This document shows positions 948-58,618 of a stretch of 64,000 nt of DNA, one piece after another (position 1 is the stretch's first letter; each line of letters starts with the position of its first letter). Source of the stretch: Candidatus Levyibacteriota bacterium (GTDB lineage Bacteria > Patescibacteriota > Microgenomatia > Levybacterales > UBA12049). The stretch spans positions 22,654-86,653 of the forward strand of contig JACPAR010000005.1 of NCBI GenBank assembly GCA_016180725.1, read 5' to 3'. The translations under genes were made by a program, and so were the position numbers. The notes below the pieces were generated by a model. That model was not told the DNA's origin. It did not search any database and was given only the letters and a program-made list of their open reading frames with translations.

Positions 948-3251
948 ATGTCAATGTTCTTACATATTCTAATAAAAAACAAAAAGGAGCTTATACTTGC
1001 CTCTTTTGCAATGTTCCTTTTTTTGCTTTTTATTCCGGTATTTACTTATGCCTACTTTGCAAAAGACTTAACAACTAAAGATATTATTATGAACAGAAAT
1101 GATACAGGTGTAACTATATTGGATCAAAATGACCGACCATTTTTTACTTTTTATCAAGCAAAAAATAAAGAGTTTGTTCCGCTTAATGATATTCCAAAAT
1201 ACACGCAAGAAACAGTGATCTCAACTGAAGATCGCGATTTTTATTTTCACCCCGGCTTTTCTATTAGAGGAATAATCCGTTCATTTATTGAAAACATAAG
1301 ACAAAGAAGTATTGTGTATGGAGGATCAACAATAACACAACAATTAGTAAAAAATGTTTTACTTAATCCCAGCAAGAGCTTTTTAAGAAAATATCAAGAA
1401 ATTGTTCTTGCCCAAGAAATTGAACGCCGCTATAAAAAAAATGAAATCTTAGAAATGTATTTAAACTCCGTATACTTTGGAGAAGGAGCTTTTGGGATAG
1501 AAGACGCAGCTCAAGTTTATTTTGGAAAAAAAGCAAAAGATTTAACGCTTGCGCAGTCCAGCCTTCTTGCCGGTTTACTTCCGGCTCCCTCATATTTATC
1601 TCCTTTGTCTGGAAATAGAGCAGAAGCAATAAACAGACAAAAAATTGTTTTGGAAAAAATGCTTGAACAAAAATATATAACAAAAGATCAAAAATATAAG
1701 GCAGAAAACGAAAAATTAGTTTTTCGCTCACCAAAAGAAGGAATTAATGAATTTGCTCCCCATTTTGCCCTAATGGTTAAAGACGAACTCGTAAATAAAT
1801 TCGGTGAGGAATATATTTCCAGATCCGGTTTTAGGATAAAAACAAGTCTCAATCTAGACTGGCAGGAATATGCAGAAAAAGTGGTAAGTGATCAAGTAGA
1901 TAAACTTGCGCCTAACAGAGTAACAAATGGAGCAGCTGTTGTAATGGATCCAAAAACAGGAGAAATTAAAGCACTTGTTGGGAGTAAAAACTGGCATGAC
2001 AGTAAATTTGGTAAAGTTAACATAGCAATATCTTTAAGACAACCTGGGTCCGCATTTAAACCTATTGTCTATGCTTCGGCATTCGAAAGACATCTTATTA
2101 CTCCCGCAACCATTCTAAAAGATCAACCTATAACCTATCCGGGAAATTACAGCCCAAAAAACTTTGACCGAAAATTCAGGGGACAAGTTACCGTAAGACG
2201 TGCCCTTGCAAACTCTTTAAACGTTCCGTCTGTTCAGATCATGTCAAAAGTTGACATACCAGACGCTATAGAAATGGCTACAAGATTAGGCATTACAACT
2301 TTAGATGACCCATCCAATTATGGCTTATCACTTGTTTTAGGAGCAGCCGAAGTAAAACCTTTAGAACTAACTAATGTTTACGGCACGTTTGCAAATCAAG
2401 GCATAAAAAATACGCCAACTGCAATACTAGAAATACAAGATAAGCGTGGCCAGATTGTGTATAAATATCATCCTCAGAATAAAGAGGTCCTGGACCCAAA
2501 ATATTCATTTTTAATATCTTCAATTCTTTCTGATAACAAAGCAAGAGCTGAGGAATTTGGAAATCTCCTGGACATATCAAAACCGGCTGCAGTTAAAACA
2601 GGAACTAGCGAAGATTTTAGAGATTCATGGACCGTTGGCTATACTCCATCTTTAGTAATTGGTGCTTGGGTTGGAAATAACGATAATTCCCCTATGGATA
2701 ATATCGCTGGCTCCCTAGGCGCTGCTCCAATTTGGAAAGATTTGATGGAAAGATTTTTATCCGATAAACCAATTGAAAATTTTGTGAAACCTCCTGGTAT
2801 AATTGCTATCCCGTATGTGTGTGTACCTTTTAAAATATCAACACCGTCTTCATCTATGGAGTTTTTTGTAAAAGGGACTGAGCCTAATAAAGACTGTACT
2901 TTGCAAAGCCCAACTATTGTTCGACCAACCACATCAACTAATCCTGTATCGGCTACACCTCTACCCACTGTGTCACCAATTCCATCCTCGCCTACTGTTG
3001 CACCTTCTCTGTCCCCAACCCACCCTATTCCAACTCATACGTTCGTCCCGTCGAATACACATATTCGCAGCAATACTCACAGAAACAAACGCAGCTTTAA
3101 ATTAGATTCTTTTCTTACGGAATTCTTACCATTTTTTAAAGTTACTCTTACAGCTCAAGAACACAATGATTATAAGAATTATATGGAAAAAATATTAACA
3201 TCGACTAATATTTATGAATCAATTAAAAAAAGCTCTAATCTACAGATATAA
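948..3251 (+). CDS. class A penicillin-binding protein (bifunctional GT51 transglycosylase / transpeptidase, PBP1A-like)
   Basis: Has an N-terminal TM segment and the GT51 motifs GGSTITQQLVKN and RKxxEIxLAxExE. Transpeptidase motifs SAFKP, SLN and KTGT are present. A C-terminal PT-rich tail follows. Confidence 0.9.
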   Translation: MSMFLHILIKNKKELILASFAMFLFLLFIPVFTYAYFAKDLTTKDIIMNRNDTGVTILDQNDRPFFTFYQAKNKEFVPLNDIPKYTQETVISTEDRDFYFHPGFSIRGIIRSFIENIRQRSIVYGGSTITQQLVKNVLLNPSKSFLRKYQEIVLAQEIERRYKKNEILEMYLNSVYFGEGAFGIEDAAQVYFGKKAKDLTLAQSSLLAGLLPAPSYLSPLSGNRAEAINRQKIVLEKMLEQKYITKDQKYKAENEKLVFRSPKEGINEFAPHFALMVKDELVNKFGEEYISRSGFRIKTSLNLDWQEYAEKVVSDQVDKLAPNRVTNGAAVVMDPKTGEIKALVGSKNWHDSKFGKVNIAISLRQPGSAFKPIVYASAFERHLITPATILKDQPITYPGNYSPKNFDRKFRGQVTVRRALANSLNVPSVQIMSKVDIPDAIEMATRLGITTLDDPSNYGLSLVLGAAEVKPLELTNVYGTFANQGIKNTPTAILEIQDKRGQIVYKYHPQNKEVLDPKYSFLISSILSDNKARAEEFGNLLDISKPAAVKTGTSEDFRDSWTVGYTPSLVIGAWVGNNDNSPMDNIAGSLGAAPIWKDLMERFLSDKPIENFVKPPGIIAIPYVCVPFKISTPSSSMEFFVKGTEPNKDCTLQSPTIVRPTTSTNPVSATPLPTVSPIPSSPTVAPSLSPTHPIPTHTFVPSNTHIRSNTHRNKRSFKLDSFLTEFLPFFKVTLTAQEHNDYKNYMEKILTSTNIYESIKKSSNLQI

Positions 3252-4833
3252 CCCAATAAATAAAAATCCTAAAAGATCACCCCAAAACAACGGTTACCAT
3301 AAACACAAAGATAAATTAAACCACGACAACCTAGAAAACCTAAAAAAAGAAGTTAAAAAGTTAAAAAAAACCGTTAGATCTCTTGAAGATAGCCAAAGAA
3401 ACTACAAAAAAATTTTTGAAAATAGCCCAACGGGTGTTTACAGAACTTCACCTGATGGAAAAATCCTTATGGCAAATACCGCTATTATTAAAATGTTTGG
3501 ATATCTGCCATCCAAAAAATTATCAGATTATAACTTAGAAGAAAATTGGCATAGTTCTTTTCCACGCAGCAAATTTAAAAAAATCATTGCTGAAAAAGAT
3601 GAAATAAAAGGTCTTGAATATGCATGGGAAAAACAGGACAACACTATAATTTTTTTGCGCGAGAATGCAAGAACGGCAAGAGATAAAAACGGAAATATTC
3701 TATATTATGAAGGGACAATTGAAGATATTACAAAACAAAAACTCGCAGAAGAACAATTAGAAAAAAGCGAAAAACGTTTTCGCGCACTTATCGAAAAAAC
3801 TTCAGACGCAATTACGCTCATAGATGCAAAGGGAAAAAATTTATACGCTAGTCCGTCAACCAGCCGTATTTTAGGATACACTCCAGAAGAGTTTCTTAGG
3901 CAAAAACCTTTTTCTCTAGTCCATCCTGACAATCAAAAATTTATAGACAATTTATTATCGGAATTGATAAAAACTCCAAACAAAAGCATGTCCGGACAAT
4001 ACCGCCTAAAGCATAAAAATGGCTCGTGGCGATGGGTGGAATTTGTTGCAACTAATTTATTGGGGGAACCAAGCGTAAAAGCAATTGTAATCAATTACTA
4101 CGACATTACAGAACGCAAAAATTTAGAAAAAAGGAAAGATGAATTCTTAAGCATTGCAAGTCATGAATTAAAAACCCCCTTAACAAGCATAAAAGCTTTT
4201 GCTCAAGTCTTACAAAAACATTTTGAAAAACTTGGAGATAAAAAATCTGCTCAATATCTTGTTAAAATGGACGCGCAACTTACTAAGCTTACAGAGCTTA
4301 TCCATGACTTACTAGATGTTAGTAGAATTCAAGACGGAAAGTTAATTTTTAAAATAATCAATTTCAACTTAGATGAGTTAATAAACGAAATAATAGAAGA
4401 AATGCAACGTACAACAATTCAACATCATATAATTAAAAAAGGGAAAATAACAAAAAATATTTTTGCAGACAGGGAACGCGTAGGACAGGTAATTATAAAT
4501 TTATTATCAAATGCAATAAAGTATTCTCCTAACTCAGCTACTATTATTGTTAATATCTCTGAGGATAAACAAAACGTTACCATAAGTGTACAGGATTTTG
4601 GAATAGGTATTTCTAAAGAAAATCAAAAAAAAGTTTTTGAAAGATTCTTTAGAGTAGAGACCCCATACGGAGAAATGTTTCCAGGTCTTGGAGTTGGCTT
4701 ATATATTTCAGCTCAAATAATTAAACGGCACAAAGGAAAAATTTGGGTAAAAAGTAAAAAAAGAAAAGGTTCCACCTTTTATTTTAAATTACCAATTTCA
4801 TTAAAAAATGATAATATAGATAATAATGAATAA
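3214..4833 (+). CDS. cytoplasmic sensor histidine kinase (PAS-PAS-HisKA-HATPase_c)
   Basis: Contains the H-box HELKTPLTSI and N/G boxes (NAIKYS, DFGIGI, GLGVGL). PAS-like repeats lie upstream. It overlaps the next gene. Confidence 0.85.
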   Translation: MNQLKKALIYRYNPINKNPKRSPQNNGYHKHKDKLNHDNLENLKKEVKKLKKTVRSLEDSQRNYKKIFENSPTGVYRTSPDGKILMANTAIIKMFGYLPSKKLSDYNLEENWHSSFPRSKFKKIIAEKDEIKGLEYAWEKQDNTIIFLRENARTARDKNGNILYYEGTIEDITKQKLAEEQLEKSEKRFRALIEKTSDAITLIDAKGKNLYASPSTSRILGYTPEEFLRQKPFSLVHPDNQKFIDNLLSELIKTPNKSMSGQYRLKHKNGSWRWVEFVATNLLGEPSVKAIVINYYDITERKNLEKRKDEFLSIASHELKTPLTSIKAFAQVLQKHFEKLGDKKSAQYLVKMDAQLTKLTELIHDLLDVSRIQDGKLIFKIINFNLDELINEIIEEMQRTTIQHHIIKKGKITKNIFADRERVGQVIINLLSNAIKYSPNSATIIVNISEDKQNVTISVQDFGIGISKENQKKVFERFFRVETPYGEMFPGLGVGLYISAQIIKRHKGKIWVKSKKRKGSTFYFKLPISLKNDNIDNNE

Positions 4834-53179: not shown

Positions 53180-53947
53180 ATGGATTATTTTCAAGCGGCA
53201 ATTTTAAGCATTGTTGAAGGAATAACCGAATTTCTCCCAATTTCCTCTACAGGCCATTTAGTTTTAGCCTCAAAACTTTTAAACCTCCCGCAAACAGATT
53301 TTGTAAAAAGCTTTGAAATAATCATTCAGCTTGGCGCAATCTTAGCAGTTATTGTTTTATATTGGAAAATTATTATTAATAAGAATGTTTGGAAAATAGT
53401 TTTCGCTGCTTTTTTACCAACTGCAATCATTGGATTTACTCTATACAAACTGGTAAAAAATATTTTATTAGGAAACTCTCAGATAACACTTCTGGCACTT
53501 TTTATAGGTGGAGTTATACTTATATTTTTAGAATTAATCTATAAAGAAAAAGAGCACCATGTAGATAAAATTGAAAATATAAGCTTAAAGAATGCATTCT
53601 TAATTGGGCTTTTTCAATCAATTTCAATTATTCCCGGCGTTTCCCGTGCTGCTGCGACTATTATAGGAGCATTGTTTATGGGGACAAAACGCAAAACTTC
53701 TGTTGAGTTTTCTTTTCTGCTTGCAATTCCAACTATGCTTGCCGCAACTGGGCTAGATTTAATCAAGAATAATTTTTCTTTTTCAACTTCTGAACTTTCT
53801 TTACTTTTAGTTGGATTTATCGGGTCTTTTGTTGTTGCCATTTTGGCTGTTAAGTTTTTTTTAAAAGTTATTCAAACCCATACGTTTATTCCTTTTGGTA
53901 TTTATAGAATTGCTTTAGCGCTTCTCTTTTGGCTAACCATAAAATAA
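53180..53947 (+). CDS. uppP: undecaprenyl-diphosphatase
   Basis: ILSIVEGITEFLPISSTGHL signature. Confidence 0.9.
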   Translation: MDYFQAAILSIVEGITEFLPISSTGHLVLASKLLNLPQTDFVKSFEIIIQLGAILAVIVLYWKIIINKNVWKIVFAAFLPTAIIGFTLYKLVKNILLGNSQITLLALFIGGVILIFLELIYKEKEHHVDKIENISLKNAFLIGLFQSISIIPGVSRAAATIIGALFMGTKRKTSVEFSFLLAIPTMLAATGLDLIKNNFSFSTSELSLLLVGFIGSFVVAILAVKFFLKVIQTHTFIPFGIYRIALALLFWLTIK

Positions 53948-54240
53948 TGAATACATTTCAAAAAATCTATACTGTTGTCTCAAAAATTCCTAAGGGAAAA
54001 ATAATGACTTATGGACAAGTTGCAAAAATTGCAAAAACAACGCCTCGTGTTGTTGGCTTTGCTCTGCGGGCAAATAAAGATCCGCAACATATTCCTTGCC
54101 ATAGAGTAGTAAGCAGCAAAGGTGAACTCACCGGCTACGCGTTTGGAGGAATAAAAAGAAAAAAAGAAATTTTGGAAAAAGAAGGCGTACAATTTATCAA
54201 CAATCAAACAGTTAATCTTAAAGAAAGCCTTTTAATTTAA
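53929..54240 (+). CDS. ogt: methylated-DNA--protein-cysteine methyltransferase (MGMT DNA-binding/active-site domain only)
   Basis: Active-site PCHRVV motif. At 103 aa, the N-terminal domain is absent. Confidence 0.7.
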   Translation: MANHKIMNTFQKIYTVVSKIPKGKIMTYGQVAKIAKTTPRVVGFALRANKDPQHIPCHRVVSSKGELTGYAFGGIKRKKEILEKEGVQFINNQTVNLKESLLI

Positions 54241-54490
54241 CTTTTTTCCAGAGATTTCCACAAATATCTACAGGCTACTGCGCGGTAAGGTTTCCAGCTA
54301 ATGGAAATTTCTTCTATTTTCTTTTTATCTTTCCTGTCAACGCCGTATAGCTTTGATACAGCAGCACAAAGTCCTAAGTCACCAATTGAATTTTTGAACA
54401 ATTTTTTAAATCGAGTAAATATTGTATCCCCAGCTTTTTTATAACCGGATCTCTACTTAAATATTTTATTGCTTCTTTAGCTATTTCCAT
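54237..54490 (-). pseudogene. remnant of an HhH-GPD DNA glycosylase (AlkA-like): N-terminal 38 aa and C-terminal 45 aa in different frames, core missing
   Basis: The minus strand reads MEIAKEAIKYLSRDPVIKKLG...* and then, after a frameshift, LCAAVSKLYGVDRKDKKKIEEISISWKPYRAVACRYLWKSLEKS* (W.PYR..A..YLW tail). Confidence 0.4.
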
Positions 54491-54606
54491 ACCCTATTAT
54501 AAACTATAACACTTTTTGGCTCTGGTTTTGGCTTTTGAACATTTAAAAAACGCTCCTTTTAATTTCCGGTCTTTAATTTCTAATATCTAATGAAGAAGAG
54601 TATGTG

Positions 54607-55254
54607 CTACATGCTTGCGTTTGGATCACCAAGAAGAACCTGATATTTTCTATTTATCCATAGATATGGCGCTGCATCCTTTTGAGCCGATGTTGCTCTT
54701 GTAGAAATCATATAAGAGAAATTACGAACCATAGACTCTTGTGATTTTCTATAAGCATCTTTGGCTGTATTACCTTTAAGAAAAGACATGGGGATTAGAT
54801 TTGAAGGAGAAATAAATAATTTAGCGATATTATCTTGCAATGGATGAGCTATGCTTGAATCTGAATAACAAATTGTATATTTCTTTTTATACCCAATAAA
54901 AGCGAGTGTATTATTATTTATACATAACTGTCCTAAATTTTCTGCAGCATCACAGCTTCTTGCATAGACAATCTTCTTTTTAAGTAATTTTTCATTTTTA
55001 TTAGCTACCACTAATGGTTCGTTGTTATAGCCTGTTATAACATCTTGGTTTCCGTGTCCATTGAAAAATACTAAAATAGGCTCATTTTTAACCATATAGC
55101 TTGTAAATATTTTTTCATTGGCTCTTTTGCCTAATAAATCCAATACTTTTATATTTTTCCTCTTCGCAAGATTTATTACATATTCACTCCATTGAAATAA
55201 ATATGTAGTTATAAGATCGTGGTCGGGTCGTGTAATAAGAATTGCTTTACTCAT
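54607..55254 (-). CDS. clan CD (caspase/C14-like) cysteine peptidase fold protein, 215 aa
   Basis: KAILITRP beta1, ILVFFNGHG (His-Gly), and 34 residues later KKKIVYARSCDA (hydrophobic strand then Cys). This is the last gene of a 3-gene ATGA-coupled operon. Confidence 0.4.
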   Translation of the reverse strand: MSKAILITRPDHDLITTYLFQWSEYVINLAKRKNIKVLDLLGKRANEKIFTSYMVKNEPILVFFNGHGNQDVITGYNNEPLVVANKNEKLLKKKIVYARSCDAAENLGQLCINNNTLAFIGYKKKYTICYSDSSIAHPLQDNIAKLFISPSNLIPMSFLKGNTAKDAYRKSQESMVRNFSYMISTRATSAQKDAAPYLWINRKYQVLLGDPNASM

Positions 55255-55508
55255 GAGGAAGATTGATAAATTGCTCCTGATGCCATATCTCTAAGATATT
55301 CCATTTGTATTTCCATTATTTCTTTACCAACCTCATTTCCTGCTTTTACATTTTCTATCATTTCCGTTTTTGTATATTCTGTTGATCCAATCGCAATTCT
55401 CAAATCATCAGAGGCAGCCATAATTCGCGCTAAGACAAGTTTTTTAATATCTTCTTGTATTTTGGGATTTGAATTTTTCTCCATTTGTCTATTTTTATTT
55501 TTACTCAT
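55251..55508 (-). CDS. hypothetical 85-aa helical protein (operon partner)
   Basis: Start and stop overlap its neighbours by 4 nt (ATGA). Confidence 0.4.
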   Translation of the reverse strand: MSKNKNRQMEKNSNPKIQEDIKKLVLARIMAASDDLRIAIGSTEYTKTEMIENVKAGNEVGKEIMEIQMEYLRDMASGAIYQSSS

Positions 55509-55690
55509 TTTAGAATTCCTAATTCAACTAATTTTTCTAGAATTTCTTTTCCTTTATTGGTGTTATTTTCAATTTCAATTTTTGCTGCATTCCAGGTTAG
55601 CGGTTCATCATCTACTACTACAACAATTTCCGTTCTTTGCCCAAGAGGTAAATTAGCATATATTTGTAGAAATTTAGTTTGAAGATTCAT
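55505..55690 (-). CDS. hypothetical 61-aa protein (operon partner)
   Basis: First gene of the coupled trio, with no recognisable domain. Confidence 0.35.
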   Translation of the reverse strand: MNLQTKFLQIYANLPLGQRTEIVVVVDDEPLTWNAAKIEIENNTNKGKEILEKLVELGILK

Positions 55691-55900
55691 AGCTTACGGC
55701 TGCTTTCTAACTGAATTATATGTAAGAGATATATAAAATACAATAGGTATTCAGTAAGAATAAAGCAAGCGGAGATTCTTAAGTCATCCCGACATTTCAA
55801 TCTCAATCTCTATTAAACAACCTAAGATATTTTAAGGTATTCTTAAGTCTTCAAGGAAAATATAAACCTTTTAGAATTAAAGGCCAAGAGTGCAATTATA

Positions 55901-56674
55901 TTAAAAATTATCAATCTTTCCATCCCAACTTTTAATTTCTTTTATATCGGTTGGGGTTAACTTGAACCATTCTCCATTAGTATTTTTATCCTTAAGCTTT
56001 TCATGTAAATATTTTTCTATAATTCTTGGATAATGCGTTTTTATACAATGAACAGGTTTTAATTTTTCAGGAGACAAGGTAGCAAGCTGTATACCTCTTT
56101 GGATAGGATTCTCGCTAATTCCAATTTTATATTCAGAACGGCTTCCATTCTTGTAAATATAAACATAACCTAAATCTTTTTTTTCTTCTTTTCGAGAACT
56201 AGTAGTTTCCAATACTGAATTACATATTTTTATAACATCTTCATAGTTTTTTTTCGTATCTATATATTCTAGAATGCTTTCTGCTATTCCTCTTACCAAT
56301 CCAAATTTTTTATAAAAAGTTGCCGATGCTGGAAAACTTGGATCACCATAATGTTTAACATCTAATTCTCCACGAGTTGGCCAACTTTTATCTTTTCTGA
56401 TCATTTTTATAAATTCTTTAAGTAAAAACTCTTTATTATATTTAGTTTTATCGAATTTGTTAGGAGTTAATTTTGCTTTTCTTACAAGATAACCATATGA
56501 AGGAAAACCGAGCTTTTGGAGAGGATATAACTTCATACCACTTTCTTGGTAAAAAACCTTTTCACTAGGAGTTGAACCTAATTTCGTAGCAAGTTTTTGA
56601 ATATAATTAATTGCCTCCTTCTGGGATTTTAAAAGATAAGTCTTCATCATAATCTCCTTCTTTATCACATTCAT
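55901..56674 (-). CDS. T5orf172/MUG113 (GIY-YIG superfamily) domain protein
   Basis: C-terminal GYVYIYKNG...YKIGISENPIQRGIQL...NGEWFKL matches the T5orf172 pattern. Confidence 0.5.
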   Translation of the reverse strand: MNVIKKEIMMKTYLLKSQKEAINYIQKLATKLGSTPSEKVFYQESGMKLYPLQKLGFPSYGYLVRKAKLTPNKFDKTKYNKEFLLKEFIKMIRKDKSWPTRGELDVKHYGDPSFPASATFYKKFGLVRGIAESILEYIDTKKNYEDVIKICNSVLETTSSRKEEKKDLGYVYIYKNGSRSEYKIGISENPIQRGIQLATLSPEKLKPVHCIKTHYPRIIEKYLHEKLKDKNTNGEWFKLTPTDIKEIKSWDGKIDNF

Positions 56675-56742
56675 AACATAATTTTAAACATTTGTCAATA
56701 AAACTTCTAGTAGTCTAATAATTATATTTATTGGGGGGGGGA

Positions 56743-56828: not shown

Positions 56829-57365
56829 TTAGTTTTTGAAATCTTCACGAAGTAAGGGGAGATAAATATTTGGAAATCGAAGACCGGCGGCAGGATGAAA
56901 AGTTAAAAAATATTTCTTATTATCTTTTTTTATTATTTTCCCATGCTCTTTTGTAATTGGAATTTTTTCCTGAAGCACTCCCTGTGCGGCCACACTACCT
57001 AAAAGAACAATAATTTTTGGATTGATGACTAATAGCTGTTTCATGAGATGGATACGACCATGTGCGATGTCAGAGCTTGAAGGAGTACCGCGGTCGGGTA
57101 AATATTTTACAGGACTTGTGATGTACACGTCTTCTTCTTTAAGTCCGCTGTCTTGAATGAGTGAGCGAAGAAGTTTGCCTGATCGTCCAACAAAGGGCCT
57201 TCCCGTTTTTGCTTCTTCTCTCCCTGGGGCCTCACCTATAAAGGCAATATCTGCGTCCGGATTACCTTCGCCCACAACTGCCTTCCCACTCTTTCCTTCT
57301 TTACACACTTCACACTTCTCGATTTCTTTAGCTATAATTTTAAGAACAGATTTTTTGTCGATCAC
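56829..57365 (-). CDS. uracil-DNA glycosylase, family 4
   Basis: [17 protein letters not shown] and 4Fe-4S Cys ligands (CEVCKEGK). Confidence 0.85.
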
Positions 57366-57391: not shown

Positions 57392-57727
57392 TTATTCTTT
57401 TTTCTCTTTTGCTTCTCTTATGTCTTTATGCAGTTCTTTTTTTAACTCCTCTGCTGATTTTTTAATTTTTTCTTCGATGTTTTCTATCTTTTCATTGAGT
57501 AGCTCCCAGATTTTATCGTGTTGATCGGAATGAAGATGCTGCAGAAACACTAGCTTATCTTCTTCTGAAAGCTCAGAAAGAATTGTGTCCGTAATCACAT
57601 GATGTAATTGTGATTCCGCAAGAGATACAAGCTCCACTCGCTCATCTTGCGATAAATTCATATCGCCTAATTCAAGCGAAATAACCGATGTTTCAACAAG
57701 ATGGCTGTAAAAATGCTTTCTTTTCAT
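57392..57727 (-). CDS. hypothetical acidic coiled-coil protein
   Basis: ORF-track only. Confidence 0.3.
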   Translation of the reverse strand: MKRKHFYSHLVETSVISLELGDMNLSQDERVELVSLAESQLHHVITDTILSELSEEDKLVFLQHLHSDQHDKIWELLNEKIENIEEKIKKSAEELKKELHKDIREAKEKKE

Positions 57728-57730
57728 ATT

Positions 57731-58618
57731 TTATTTCATGCTAATTGGACCCAGCGGGACTTTATCTTCCGGATCATCAATAAAAAAGTATAACACAGCG
57801 CCTTTTATTGATCCATCAAAACGCTCTAAATAATGCATAATTTCCGGTGACCCTCCCAAGTGCTTACCAGTCCAAACTGCAGGTCCGGCGTCGCCAATAA
57901 CTGCAATAATCGCTTTTCCGTTATCGGGATTTACGACAATCATTTTCCTATATTTAAAAAAATCTCTATATTCGGCAAACCTTTTATTAAAGTCTACTGA
58001 AAGAAATGTTTGAACAGCTATATAATATTTTTCCCTAAGCCTATCTTTCTCTGTCATCTCCATGGATGATTGCGTAAAATATCCCCAAGCTCCAAGTCCT
58101 GGAGCCATACCTGACGAATAATATAATTTTGATTCTTCCTCCGAATCAAAATGAGCAGAGATATTATCACCAGGAAAACGCGCTAAATGCTGTTCTGCGC
58201 CAATTAATCCATAACTTCTATTAAGCCTTTTTCCATCAATCTCTGCCTTAACTTTTACCCCAAAGCTTCTGGTTAATATTTCTGTAATAGTTTGCTCTTC
58301 CTTCGAAGTTAAAGATCTTAATTCGAAAGGCAATAATTTAACTAAGTCTGTAATTAAAAAAATATTTTTATCCAATTCTTTTGCAGATGCTTGATTAGCA
58401 ACCAATAAAGAGGGAACTGATGGAAGCTTGTATGCCGTAGGAGAGGTAAGAAGCAAAAATCCGCTTAACGACCCCACTGCCAATTGCCTAGCATTACTAA
58501 AAGCTTCTTCAAGAGAACTTCTATGTTTGCTCCAAAGATTTTCCTGTAAATTCTTTTGACGAACAGTCCATTTACTTTTTAGATGTTCAAACTGTGGCTT
58601 TTTGTTTTGAGATGGCAC
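57731..58618 (-). CDS. protein with C-terminal RlpA-like double-psi beta-barrel (DPBB) domain
   Basis: MIVVNPDNGKAIIAVIGDAGP...GGSPEIMHYL resembles the RlpA/3D DPBB core. Confidence 0.35.
   Translation of the reverse strand: MPSQNKKPQFEHLKSKWTVRQKNLQENLWSKHRSSLEEAFSNARQLAVGSLSGFLLLTSPTAYKLPSVPSLLVANQASAKELDKNIFLITDLVKLLPFELRSLTSKEEQTITEILTRSFGVKVKAEIDGKRLNRSYGLIGAEQHLARFPGDNISAHFDSEEESKLYYSSGMAPGLGAWGYFTQSSMEMTEKDRLREKYYIAVQTFLSVDFNKRFAEYRDFFKYRKMIVVNPDNGKAIIAVIGDAGPAVWTGKHLGGSPEIMHYLERFDGSIKGAVLYFFIDDPEDKVPLGPISMK

Follow-up and report, generated by a model that had tools for sequence, protein, structure and literature searches.

A compact three-gene module ending in a predicted minimal caspase-like (clan CD) peptidase: a candidate uncharacterised system of ultra-small bacteria and archaea

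We analysed 64,000 nucleotides (nt) of the Candidatus Levyibacteriota contig JACPAR010000005.1 (hereafter the window) and, within them, three short minus-strand genes that we call A, B and C. Our findings are best explained by a self-contained, translationally coupled three-protein module, to which sequence comparison across many genomes points, and in which the largest product, C, would be an active Cys-His endopeptidase with the caspase/gingipain (clan CD) fold, as argued by a structural model and residue conservation. Gene A (55690..55505), the first of the operon, encodes an acidic protein of 61 amino acids (aa) and is the most conserved of the three; gene B (55508..55251) encodes an acidic protein of 85 aa and is the least conserved; gene C (55254..54607) encodes a basic protein of 215 aa, the putative stand-alone clan-CD cysteine peptidase. 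At each of the A/B and B/C junctions in the window, start and stop codons share a 4-nt ATGA overlap. This layout, three open reading frames (ORFs) of 61, 85 and 215 aa linked via ATGA overlaps, had been noted in the original prediction, which was made from this DNA alone, and is borne out by the ORF list and the sequence.

Same-length homologues exist for all three proteins (219, 88 and 266 clusters at 90% identity, the 88 being those of B), all of them unnamed or "hypothetical" and derived from Candidatus Levybacteria, Curtissbacteria and other Patescibacteria. A profile search over 1.84 billion representatives placed 1803 clusters (50% identity) in the C family at E<=1e-3 and 314 at E<=1e-30; the best 150 of the 1803 relatives are mostly 200-220 aa long and none exceeds 246 aa, and thus they carry no added domains. 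Four contigs encoding C homologues hold the identical small-small-large trio in differing surroundings. Scanning a single genome for each GTDB species gave 64 loci (the genome set), to which nine metagenome loci were added, the trio members being located by hidden Markov model searches with A, B and C profiles over all ORFs of the loci. The A-B-C order on one strand holds in essentially all of these 64 and nine loci, the exceptions being contig ends and a decayed locus (L070), and both junctions are overlaps of 1-26 nt or gaps of <10 nt in 68 of 70 loci. A further, A-anchored search of metagenome contigs returned 29 full trios and nine more that are consistent with a trio and are cut by contig ends. 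The pairwise divergences of A, B and C are correlated (r ~0.73); the three evolve as a unit. The three ORFs are real genes forming a module, far beyond chance ORFs: where the original prediction had proposed to check for relatives with an absent or scrambled trio, order, strand and coupling are instead conserved.

The predicted model of C runs β1-α-β2-α-β3-[N-G-H67-G]-hairpin-β4-[R-S-C101]-α-β5-loop-three helices-β6, a caspase-type α/β/α sandwich superposable on known clan-CD members. As in that clan, a His(-Gly) follows β3 and a Cys follows β4, each behind a hydrophobic strand; by DSSP, β3 (59-64) directly precedes N65 and β4 (95-98) directly precedes R99. In the sequence, KAILI occupies residues 3-7, ILVFFNGHG holds His67 and IVYARSCDA holds Cys101, 34 residues after His67. 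The putative catalytic codons lie on the minus strand at 55054..55056 (His67, within N65-G66-H67-G68; gtg on the plus strand, CAC on the minus strand) and at 54952..54954 (Cys101, within R99-S100-C101; aca on the plus strand, TGT on the minus strand). Among structural matches the gingipain RgpB scores highest (17.6; 171 residues superposed, 2.3 Å), followed by Kgp (16.7), an activated SAVED-CHAT protease (15.8), separases, metacaspases and legumain/asparaginyl endopeptidases (12-13), and then MALT1, glycosylphosphatidylinositol (GPI) transamidase, caspases and C11 proteases (about 9-11.5); generic flavodoxin-like folds score about 8.5 or below. From the topology and the superposition on RgpB, His67 and Cys101 would be juxtaposed. 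The clan-CD hallmarks claimed beforehand for the 215-aa protein thus recur at the quoted spacing, and the structure check proposed with them returns, at the level of a model, a clan-CD topology with the dyad at canonical positions and a superposition on RgpB.

Conservation points the same way. Across 58 complete trios, which span bacteria and archaea, the mean pairwise identity of C is 0.42, and N65, G66, H67, G68, G75, S100, C101, G108, G121, Y122, P138 and D141 are invariant in 58 of 58; D13 (56/58), T8 and P10 are near-invariant. The invariance of the dyad and its surrounding motifs speaks for a catalytically active C and against a pseudo-protease. In clan CD, the stretches that follow β1 (a loop) and β5 form the S1 pocket; invariant Asp141 and near-invariant Asp13 stand at these positions and, by analogy, suggest a preference of C for a basic P1 residue. 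C is itself basic (median isoelectric point (pI) 9.4, net charge +8), with no prodomain, no sensor domain and, on reading the sequence, no evident secretion signal.

C nonetheless falls outside the established families. It has no match at meaningful E-values among Pfam, NCBIfam, PADLOC or PHROG models; the window protein matches neither Pfam C25 (PF01364) nor CHAT (PF12770) nor Peptidase_C14, and no sensor or repeat domain is fused to it in the best 150 relatives. When homologues were scanned individually against Pfam, 3 of 34 gave sub-threshold C13 or C25 matches, and 1 of 34 matched C25 at E 0.054. A sequence-profile search of the PDB gave chance-level matches only and did not retrieve gingipains, the structurally closest proteins (RgpB and Kgp, MEROPS C25, clan CD), with which identity is only about 12%. 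Unlike gingipains, C is a cytoplasmic-looking protein of 215 aa, without signal peptide, prodomain, extra N-terminal subdomain, immunoglobulin-like domain or C-terminal domain of the type IX secretion system, and it comes with A and B, whereas gingipains have no small co-translated partners. The CHAT defence proteases, that is, SAVED-CHAT of type III CRISPR (clustered regularly interspaced short palindromic repeats) and of systems resembling CBASS (cyclic-oligonucleotide-based anti-phage signalling system), and TPR-CHAT/Csx29 ("Craspase"), are structurally near, but C lacks their SAVED or tetratricopeptide-repeat (TPR) sensor, neither A nor B is related to Csx30, Csx31 or RpoE, and no CRISPR or cyclic-nucleotide genes lie near the trio. 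Compared with caspases, metacaspases and orthocaspases (C14), C has no evident p20/p10 linker and no death-fold or other N-terminal domains, and few members of the clan are smaller. Since it fails the C25, CHAT, C13 and C14 sequence tests and lacks the accessory domains of these families, C should, on sequence and model, be filed as a new sequence family within clan CD.

The two small partners differ from C, and from each other, in conservation and charge. Mean pairwise identity is 0.49 for A and 0.36 for B, and both are acidic (median pI 5.7 and 5.0) where C is basic. Invariant residues of A are F7, Y11, R19, W33 and L54, and P15 and E39 occur in 57/58; its model (predicted local distance difference test, pLDDT, 93) consists of a helix, a short helix, a β hairpin and two helices. 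This model shows no recognisable ribbon-helix-helix, helix-turn-helix or AbrB fold, so that a classical DNA-binding regulator finds no support in A, and structural comparison revealed no recognisable effector fold. The N-terminal tail of B, 7-22 residues long, is charged and variable, and the core behind it is conserved and closes with EYLRDMAxGAIYQ; in the alignment this C-terminal motif is followed by a few variable residues. Neither A nor B has a match at meaningful E-values among Pfam, NCBIfam, PADLOC or PHROG models, their sequence-profile searches of the PDB gave chance-level matches only, and scans of individual B members against Pfam gave nothing consistent; the two partners had been described as having no detectable domains, and no domain model indeed matches them. 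Among A homologues, sub-threshold Pfam similarities to DUF7713 (14/30) and DUF7161 (10/30) occur with best E of 0.003-0.014; not interpretable as such, they may reflect a remote relationship, which could offer a clue to what A does.

The trio occurs in a peculiar set of hosts. In the 64-locus scan, the bacterial hosts belong to many Patescibacteria classes, including Microgenomates lineages, Parcubacteria, Saccharibacteria and Berkelbacteria, with two Omnitrophota, and the archaeal hosts are DPANN, namely Woese-, Pace-, Aenigm-, Nano- and Micrarchaeota. In a neighbour-joining tree of A+B+C, nine DPANN sequences form one deep clade, one Aenigmarchaeota copy falls among bacteria, and the classes of the candidate phyla radiation (CPR) are intermixed, which indicates horizontal transfer. 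Several third-party-annotation contigs from metagenome-assembled genomes (MAGs) bear the titles "uncultured Gammaproteobacteria", "Pseudomonadales" or "Methanosarcinales" (L018, L019, L021, L026, L034, L037, L042, L048, L057, L066 and L068); those of their trios included in the tree nest inside CPR or DPANN clades, and the titles are probably mislabelled bins, not evidence of the trio in those taxa. On a Hodarchaeaceae (Asgard) contig (L069:5536-6321) the trio is degenerate: A and B match weakly and C is truncated after ~residue 106. Either this copy was acquired horizontally and has since decayed, or the contig is mis-binned.

Copy number and surroundings vary as well. Two MAGs, from Roizmanbacteria and Beckwithbacteria, each hold two separate copies of the trio (L031/L038 and L039/L043), and in the Beckwithbacteria MAG one of the two has a nonsense codon in C. 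Tandem trios, in which the C of one copy precedes the A of the other, were found at L099:2-250 and 2806-3745 and at L130:29-658 and 1150-1311. Clustering of 862 flanking ORFs and comparison of 150 neighbours with Pfam and PADLOC revealed no recurrent fourth gene and no defence-island context: Pfam sorts the 150 immediate neighbours into 144 families, the commonest of which (AbiEii, ribosomal L5, methyltransferases and MNT-type nucleotidyltransferases) occur three times each. The flanks in the window have no counterpart beside any other trio, even the 87%-identical Levybacteria copy (L010). At L001:1932-9610 (and likewise in L002 and L003) the trio sits at a divergent junction by a 509-aa serine recombinase and some ten small ORFs without Pfam match, surroundings that suggest an integrated mobile element or the remains of a prophage. 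In three Nomurabacteria-like Patescibacteria (L027:4933-8206, L033 and L056) it lies on the same strand inside a ribosomal-protein (spc-type) operon, with L5 upstream and L6, L18 and SecY downstream, which is unusual for an accessory cassette. A typical phage gene was considered for C and rejected: it has no relatives in IMG/VR, no PHROG match and only two weak matches in BFVD.

C is also the component that decays. In 6 of the 64 genome loci an otherwise well conserved C gene is disrupted by a single lesion, be it a nonsense codon (L012, TGA at codon 48; L065, TAA at codon 77; L039, TAA at codon 83), a frameshift (L068, L070) or a truncation (L069). In the A-anchored metagenome set, C is defective or missing in roughly one third of the assessable loci, through internal deletions in which His67 and Cys101 are both lost (L077; L090/L091/L093), frameshifts (L095, L121, L129), truncation before Cys101 (L114) or an in-frame A-C fusion deleting B and most of C (L127); where C is missing, A stands by itself (L097, L128, L132) or is joined by B (L133). 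Where C is defective, A is intact and B usually so. This decay is likely a real trend, given the deletion alleles, the nonsense substitutions and their spread over independent samples. A C that appears dispensable or costly, as addiction or abortive-infection toxins are, is what one sees in these alleles.

We favour a reading, with a probability of about 0.45, in which the trio is a mobile, dispensable proteolytic module of ultra-small symbiotic prokaryotes, resembling toxin-antitoxin (TA) or abortive-infection systems, with A and B controlling C. Since C has no prodomain, sensor domain or secretion signal, its activity would be controlled in trans; the acidic A and B, made together with C in fixed proportion, would bind the basic protease. 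B, with its disordered charged tail and as the fastest-evolving component, would most likely be an inhibitor, a pseudosubstrate or a cleavable adaptor, and A, as the most conserved, most likely an essential cofactor or a released effector. Candidate cleavage sites would be the invariant R19 of A, the near-invariant R28 of B and the N-terminal tail of B. Points of inference are complex formation, the assignment of the inhibiting and of the cleaved partner, toxicity, and the target in the cell.

In its operon logic the trio comes closest to tripartite TA loci. Like these, the trio is a compact overlapping operon pairing small acidic partners with a basic enzyme, and its distribution is patchy, mobile and multicopy, with decayed presumptive toxins and orphan presumptive antitoxins. 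Tripartite type II systems (ω-ε-ζ, paaR-paaA-parE) likewise comprise three short coupled genes ordered small-small-large, ω-ε-ζ proteins measuring about 71/90/287 aa against 61/85/215 aa for A-B-C, and the likeness extends to acidic partners of a basic enzyme, mobility, multiple copies, orphan small genes and decayed "toxin" genes. On the other hand, the presumptive toxin here is a caspase-like protease, and we know of no established TA family with such a toxin; neither small partner is recognisably DNA-binding, and the model of A shows no recognisable ribbon-helix-helix, helix-turn-helix or AbrB fold. Other observations weigh against the TA-like reading: A is better conserved than the enzyme, an atypical trait in an antitoxin; none of A, B and C has a match in PADLOC (PADLOC-DB v2); Pfam and PADLOC annotation of the flanks shows no consistent defence-island context; the three loci inside a ribosomal-protein operon fit a housekeeping role better; and some C lesions may be MAG or assembly errors, the A-anchored set being biased to loci that retain A. 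The stronger version of the TA-like reading, an unrecognised TA/abortive-infection class in which a minimal caspase-like toxin, restrained by two dedicated small acidic partners, would have moved horizontally between CPR bacteria, Omnitrophota and DPANN archaea, is tentative and, in our judgement, somewhat doubtful. Functioning in bacterial and archaeal cells alike, such a module would need either a target that is conserved universally or the release of its own partner A.

The main rival, which we regard as unlikely, is a lineage-typical housekeeping maturation protease, in which C would process a cellular substrate, for example a translation- or surface-related protein, with A and B as dedicated chaperone or specificity subunits. 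Very strong sequence conservation, of A above all, is what such a protease would show, and the distribution tracks nano-sized, host-dependent lineages (Patescibacteria, Omnitrophota, DPANN), with the DPANN sequences in one deep clade; the position between ribosomal L5 and L6/L18 in three genomes and the housekeeping nature of the trio's neighbours in the window fit as well. A housekeeping gene would, however, hardly be expected to lack shared synteny between close relatives, with heterogeneous flanks, to occur in double and tandem copies, to leave orphan A genes, or to accumulate nonsense, frameshift and deletion alleles of C so frequently in otherwise intact loci. We give an equally low probability to an anti-phage or abortive-infection switch built like CalpL-CalpT-CalpS or Craspase-Csx30, in which a trigger would lead C to cleave the adaptor B and so free A to act on a conserved machine. 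The architecture is that of a protease with two small co-translated partners, the strongest conservation is found in A, as a binder of a conserved target would show, C finds some of its closest structural matches in the SAVED-CHAT and Craspase CHAT proteases, and the loss-of-function alleles and mobility suit a defence gene. Yet C has no sensor domain and the flanks no associated sensor gene, nor CRISPR or CBASS genes; PADLOC gave no match, IMG/VR holds no relatives, and A is a 61-aa acidic protein without a recognisable effector fold. A sensor-less switch of the Craspase/CalpL kind overlaps with the TA-like reading that we favour.

Two other explanations carry still less weight. Peptide or small-protein maturation, either RiPP-like (ribosomally synthesised and post-translationally modified peptides) or by a transpeptidase or ligase activity as in legumain-type ligases or PorU, would make A or B the precursor that C would cleave, cyclise or ligate. 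Several clan-CD enzymes are transpeptidases, the OaAEP1 ligase and GPI transamidase are among the structural matches of C, the small ORFs lie immediately upstream of the protease, and the conserved C-terminal motif of B is followed by a few variable residues. We nevertheless hold this to be very improbable: A is compact, globular and conserved throughout, as is B apart from its N-terminal tail, so that there is no hypervariable core peptide; genes for modifying enzymes, transporters or immunity are absent from the flanks; and A, B and C show no evident signal peptide, as read from the sequences without a prediction tool. That C is a non-catalytic caspase-fold scaffold, a pseudo-protease in the manner of Raptor or c-FLIP, within a structural complex formed by the trio, is the least credible of all. 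Pseudo-proteases typically lose the dyad, whereas all 58 sequences, drawn from bacteria and archaea and with a mean identity of ~40%, retain His67, Cys101 and the flanking N-G-H-G and S-C motifs unchanged.

Around the operon in the window, several further features were noted. A TATAAT -10-like box (55715..55720, minus strand), read from the sequence, lies 25-30 nt upstream of the A start, and TATAAT is also visible by eye near the A start in the upstream sequences of L010, L001, L007 and L004; the box in the window together with similar ones in four relatives suggests that the operon probably has its own promoter. A consensus promoter scan of the window did not report this box because its -35 is weak. 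In the 210-nt leader or intergenic region upstream of A there is a direct repeat, ATTCTTAAGTC(A/T)TC, at 55775-55788 and 55839-55852 (64 nt apart), and a 12-nt inverted repeat, TTCTAACTGAAT / ATTCAGTAAGAA, at 55705-55716 and 55749-55760; the repeats may be operator-like, or they may be chance matches, the DNA being AT-rich. No convincing direct or inverted repeats marking insertion boundaries flank the trio in the window, and no terminator-like site was found there. GC content is 0.29-0.30 over 54500-56700, which takes in the trio and the adjoining T5orf172/MUG113 gene, against 0.33-0.38 in the flanks.

The original prediction had set the module between DNA-repair genes (ogt, an alkA relic and a uracil-DNA glycosylase) and next to a T5orf172/GIY-YIG gene, and had called this context typical of defence or TA islands. 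Most of the list stands. The Ogt-like gene (53929..54240) has a Pfam match to the DNA-binding domain; it encodes only the 103-aa C-terminal DNA-binding/active-site domain, with the PCHRV motif present, and at its start it overlaps the tail of the BacA/UppP gene. The uracil-DNA glycosylase (56829..57365) is of the family-4 type by Pfam, and the T5orf172/MUG113 protein (55901..56674) has an N-terminal homing-endonuclease-associated repeat. The "alkA relic", a 54-aa ORF at 54237-54401 on the strand opposite to the Ogt-like gene, has no Pfam match. The island context is not supported: the window neighbours, BacA/UppP and transketolase among them by Pfam, are housekeeping genes, and no partner recurs in the flanks across loci. 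The T5orf172 gene, with a weak PADLOC match to PDC-S57, partners the trio in no other locus examined. Downstream of the glycosylase gene, two adjoining minus-strand ORFs (111 aa and 295 aa; 57392-58618) have no Pfam or PHROG match.

What is new, as we rate it from sequence and model, is not the protease clan, which is known, but the family and the three-gene architecture. The full-text literature on clan CD and caspase-like proteases in CPR, Patescibacteria and DPANN yielded no published description of the trio, in line with the earlier claim that such a system was undescribed. The family of C is large (1803 clusters at 50% identity) yet missing from Pfam, NCBIfam, PADLOC and PHROGs, and a trio spread over CPR bacteria, Omnitrophota and DPANN archaea is unusual, in organisms whose accessory biology is almost entirely unexplored. 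Caspase-fold proteases are central to eukaryotic programmed cell death and immunity and are increasingly recognised in prokaryotes, as in Craspase, SAVED-CHAT and the proteases that activate bacterial gasdermins. Unlike in those proteases, the regulation of C, which has no sensor domain, would come wholly from two co-translated mini-proteins. If the trio does serve addiction or defence through a protease toxin, TA biology would gain a new toxin chemistry and, with it, a compact and readily testable proteolytic switch of three proteins.

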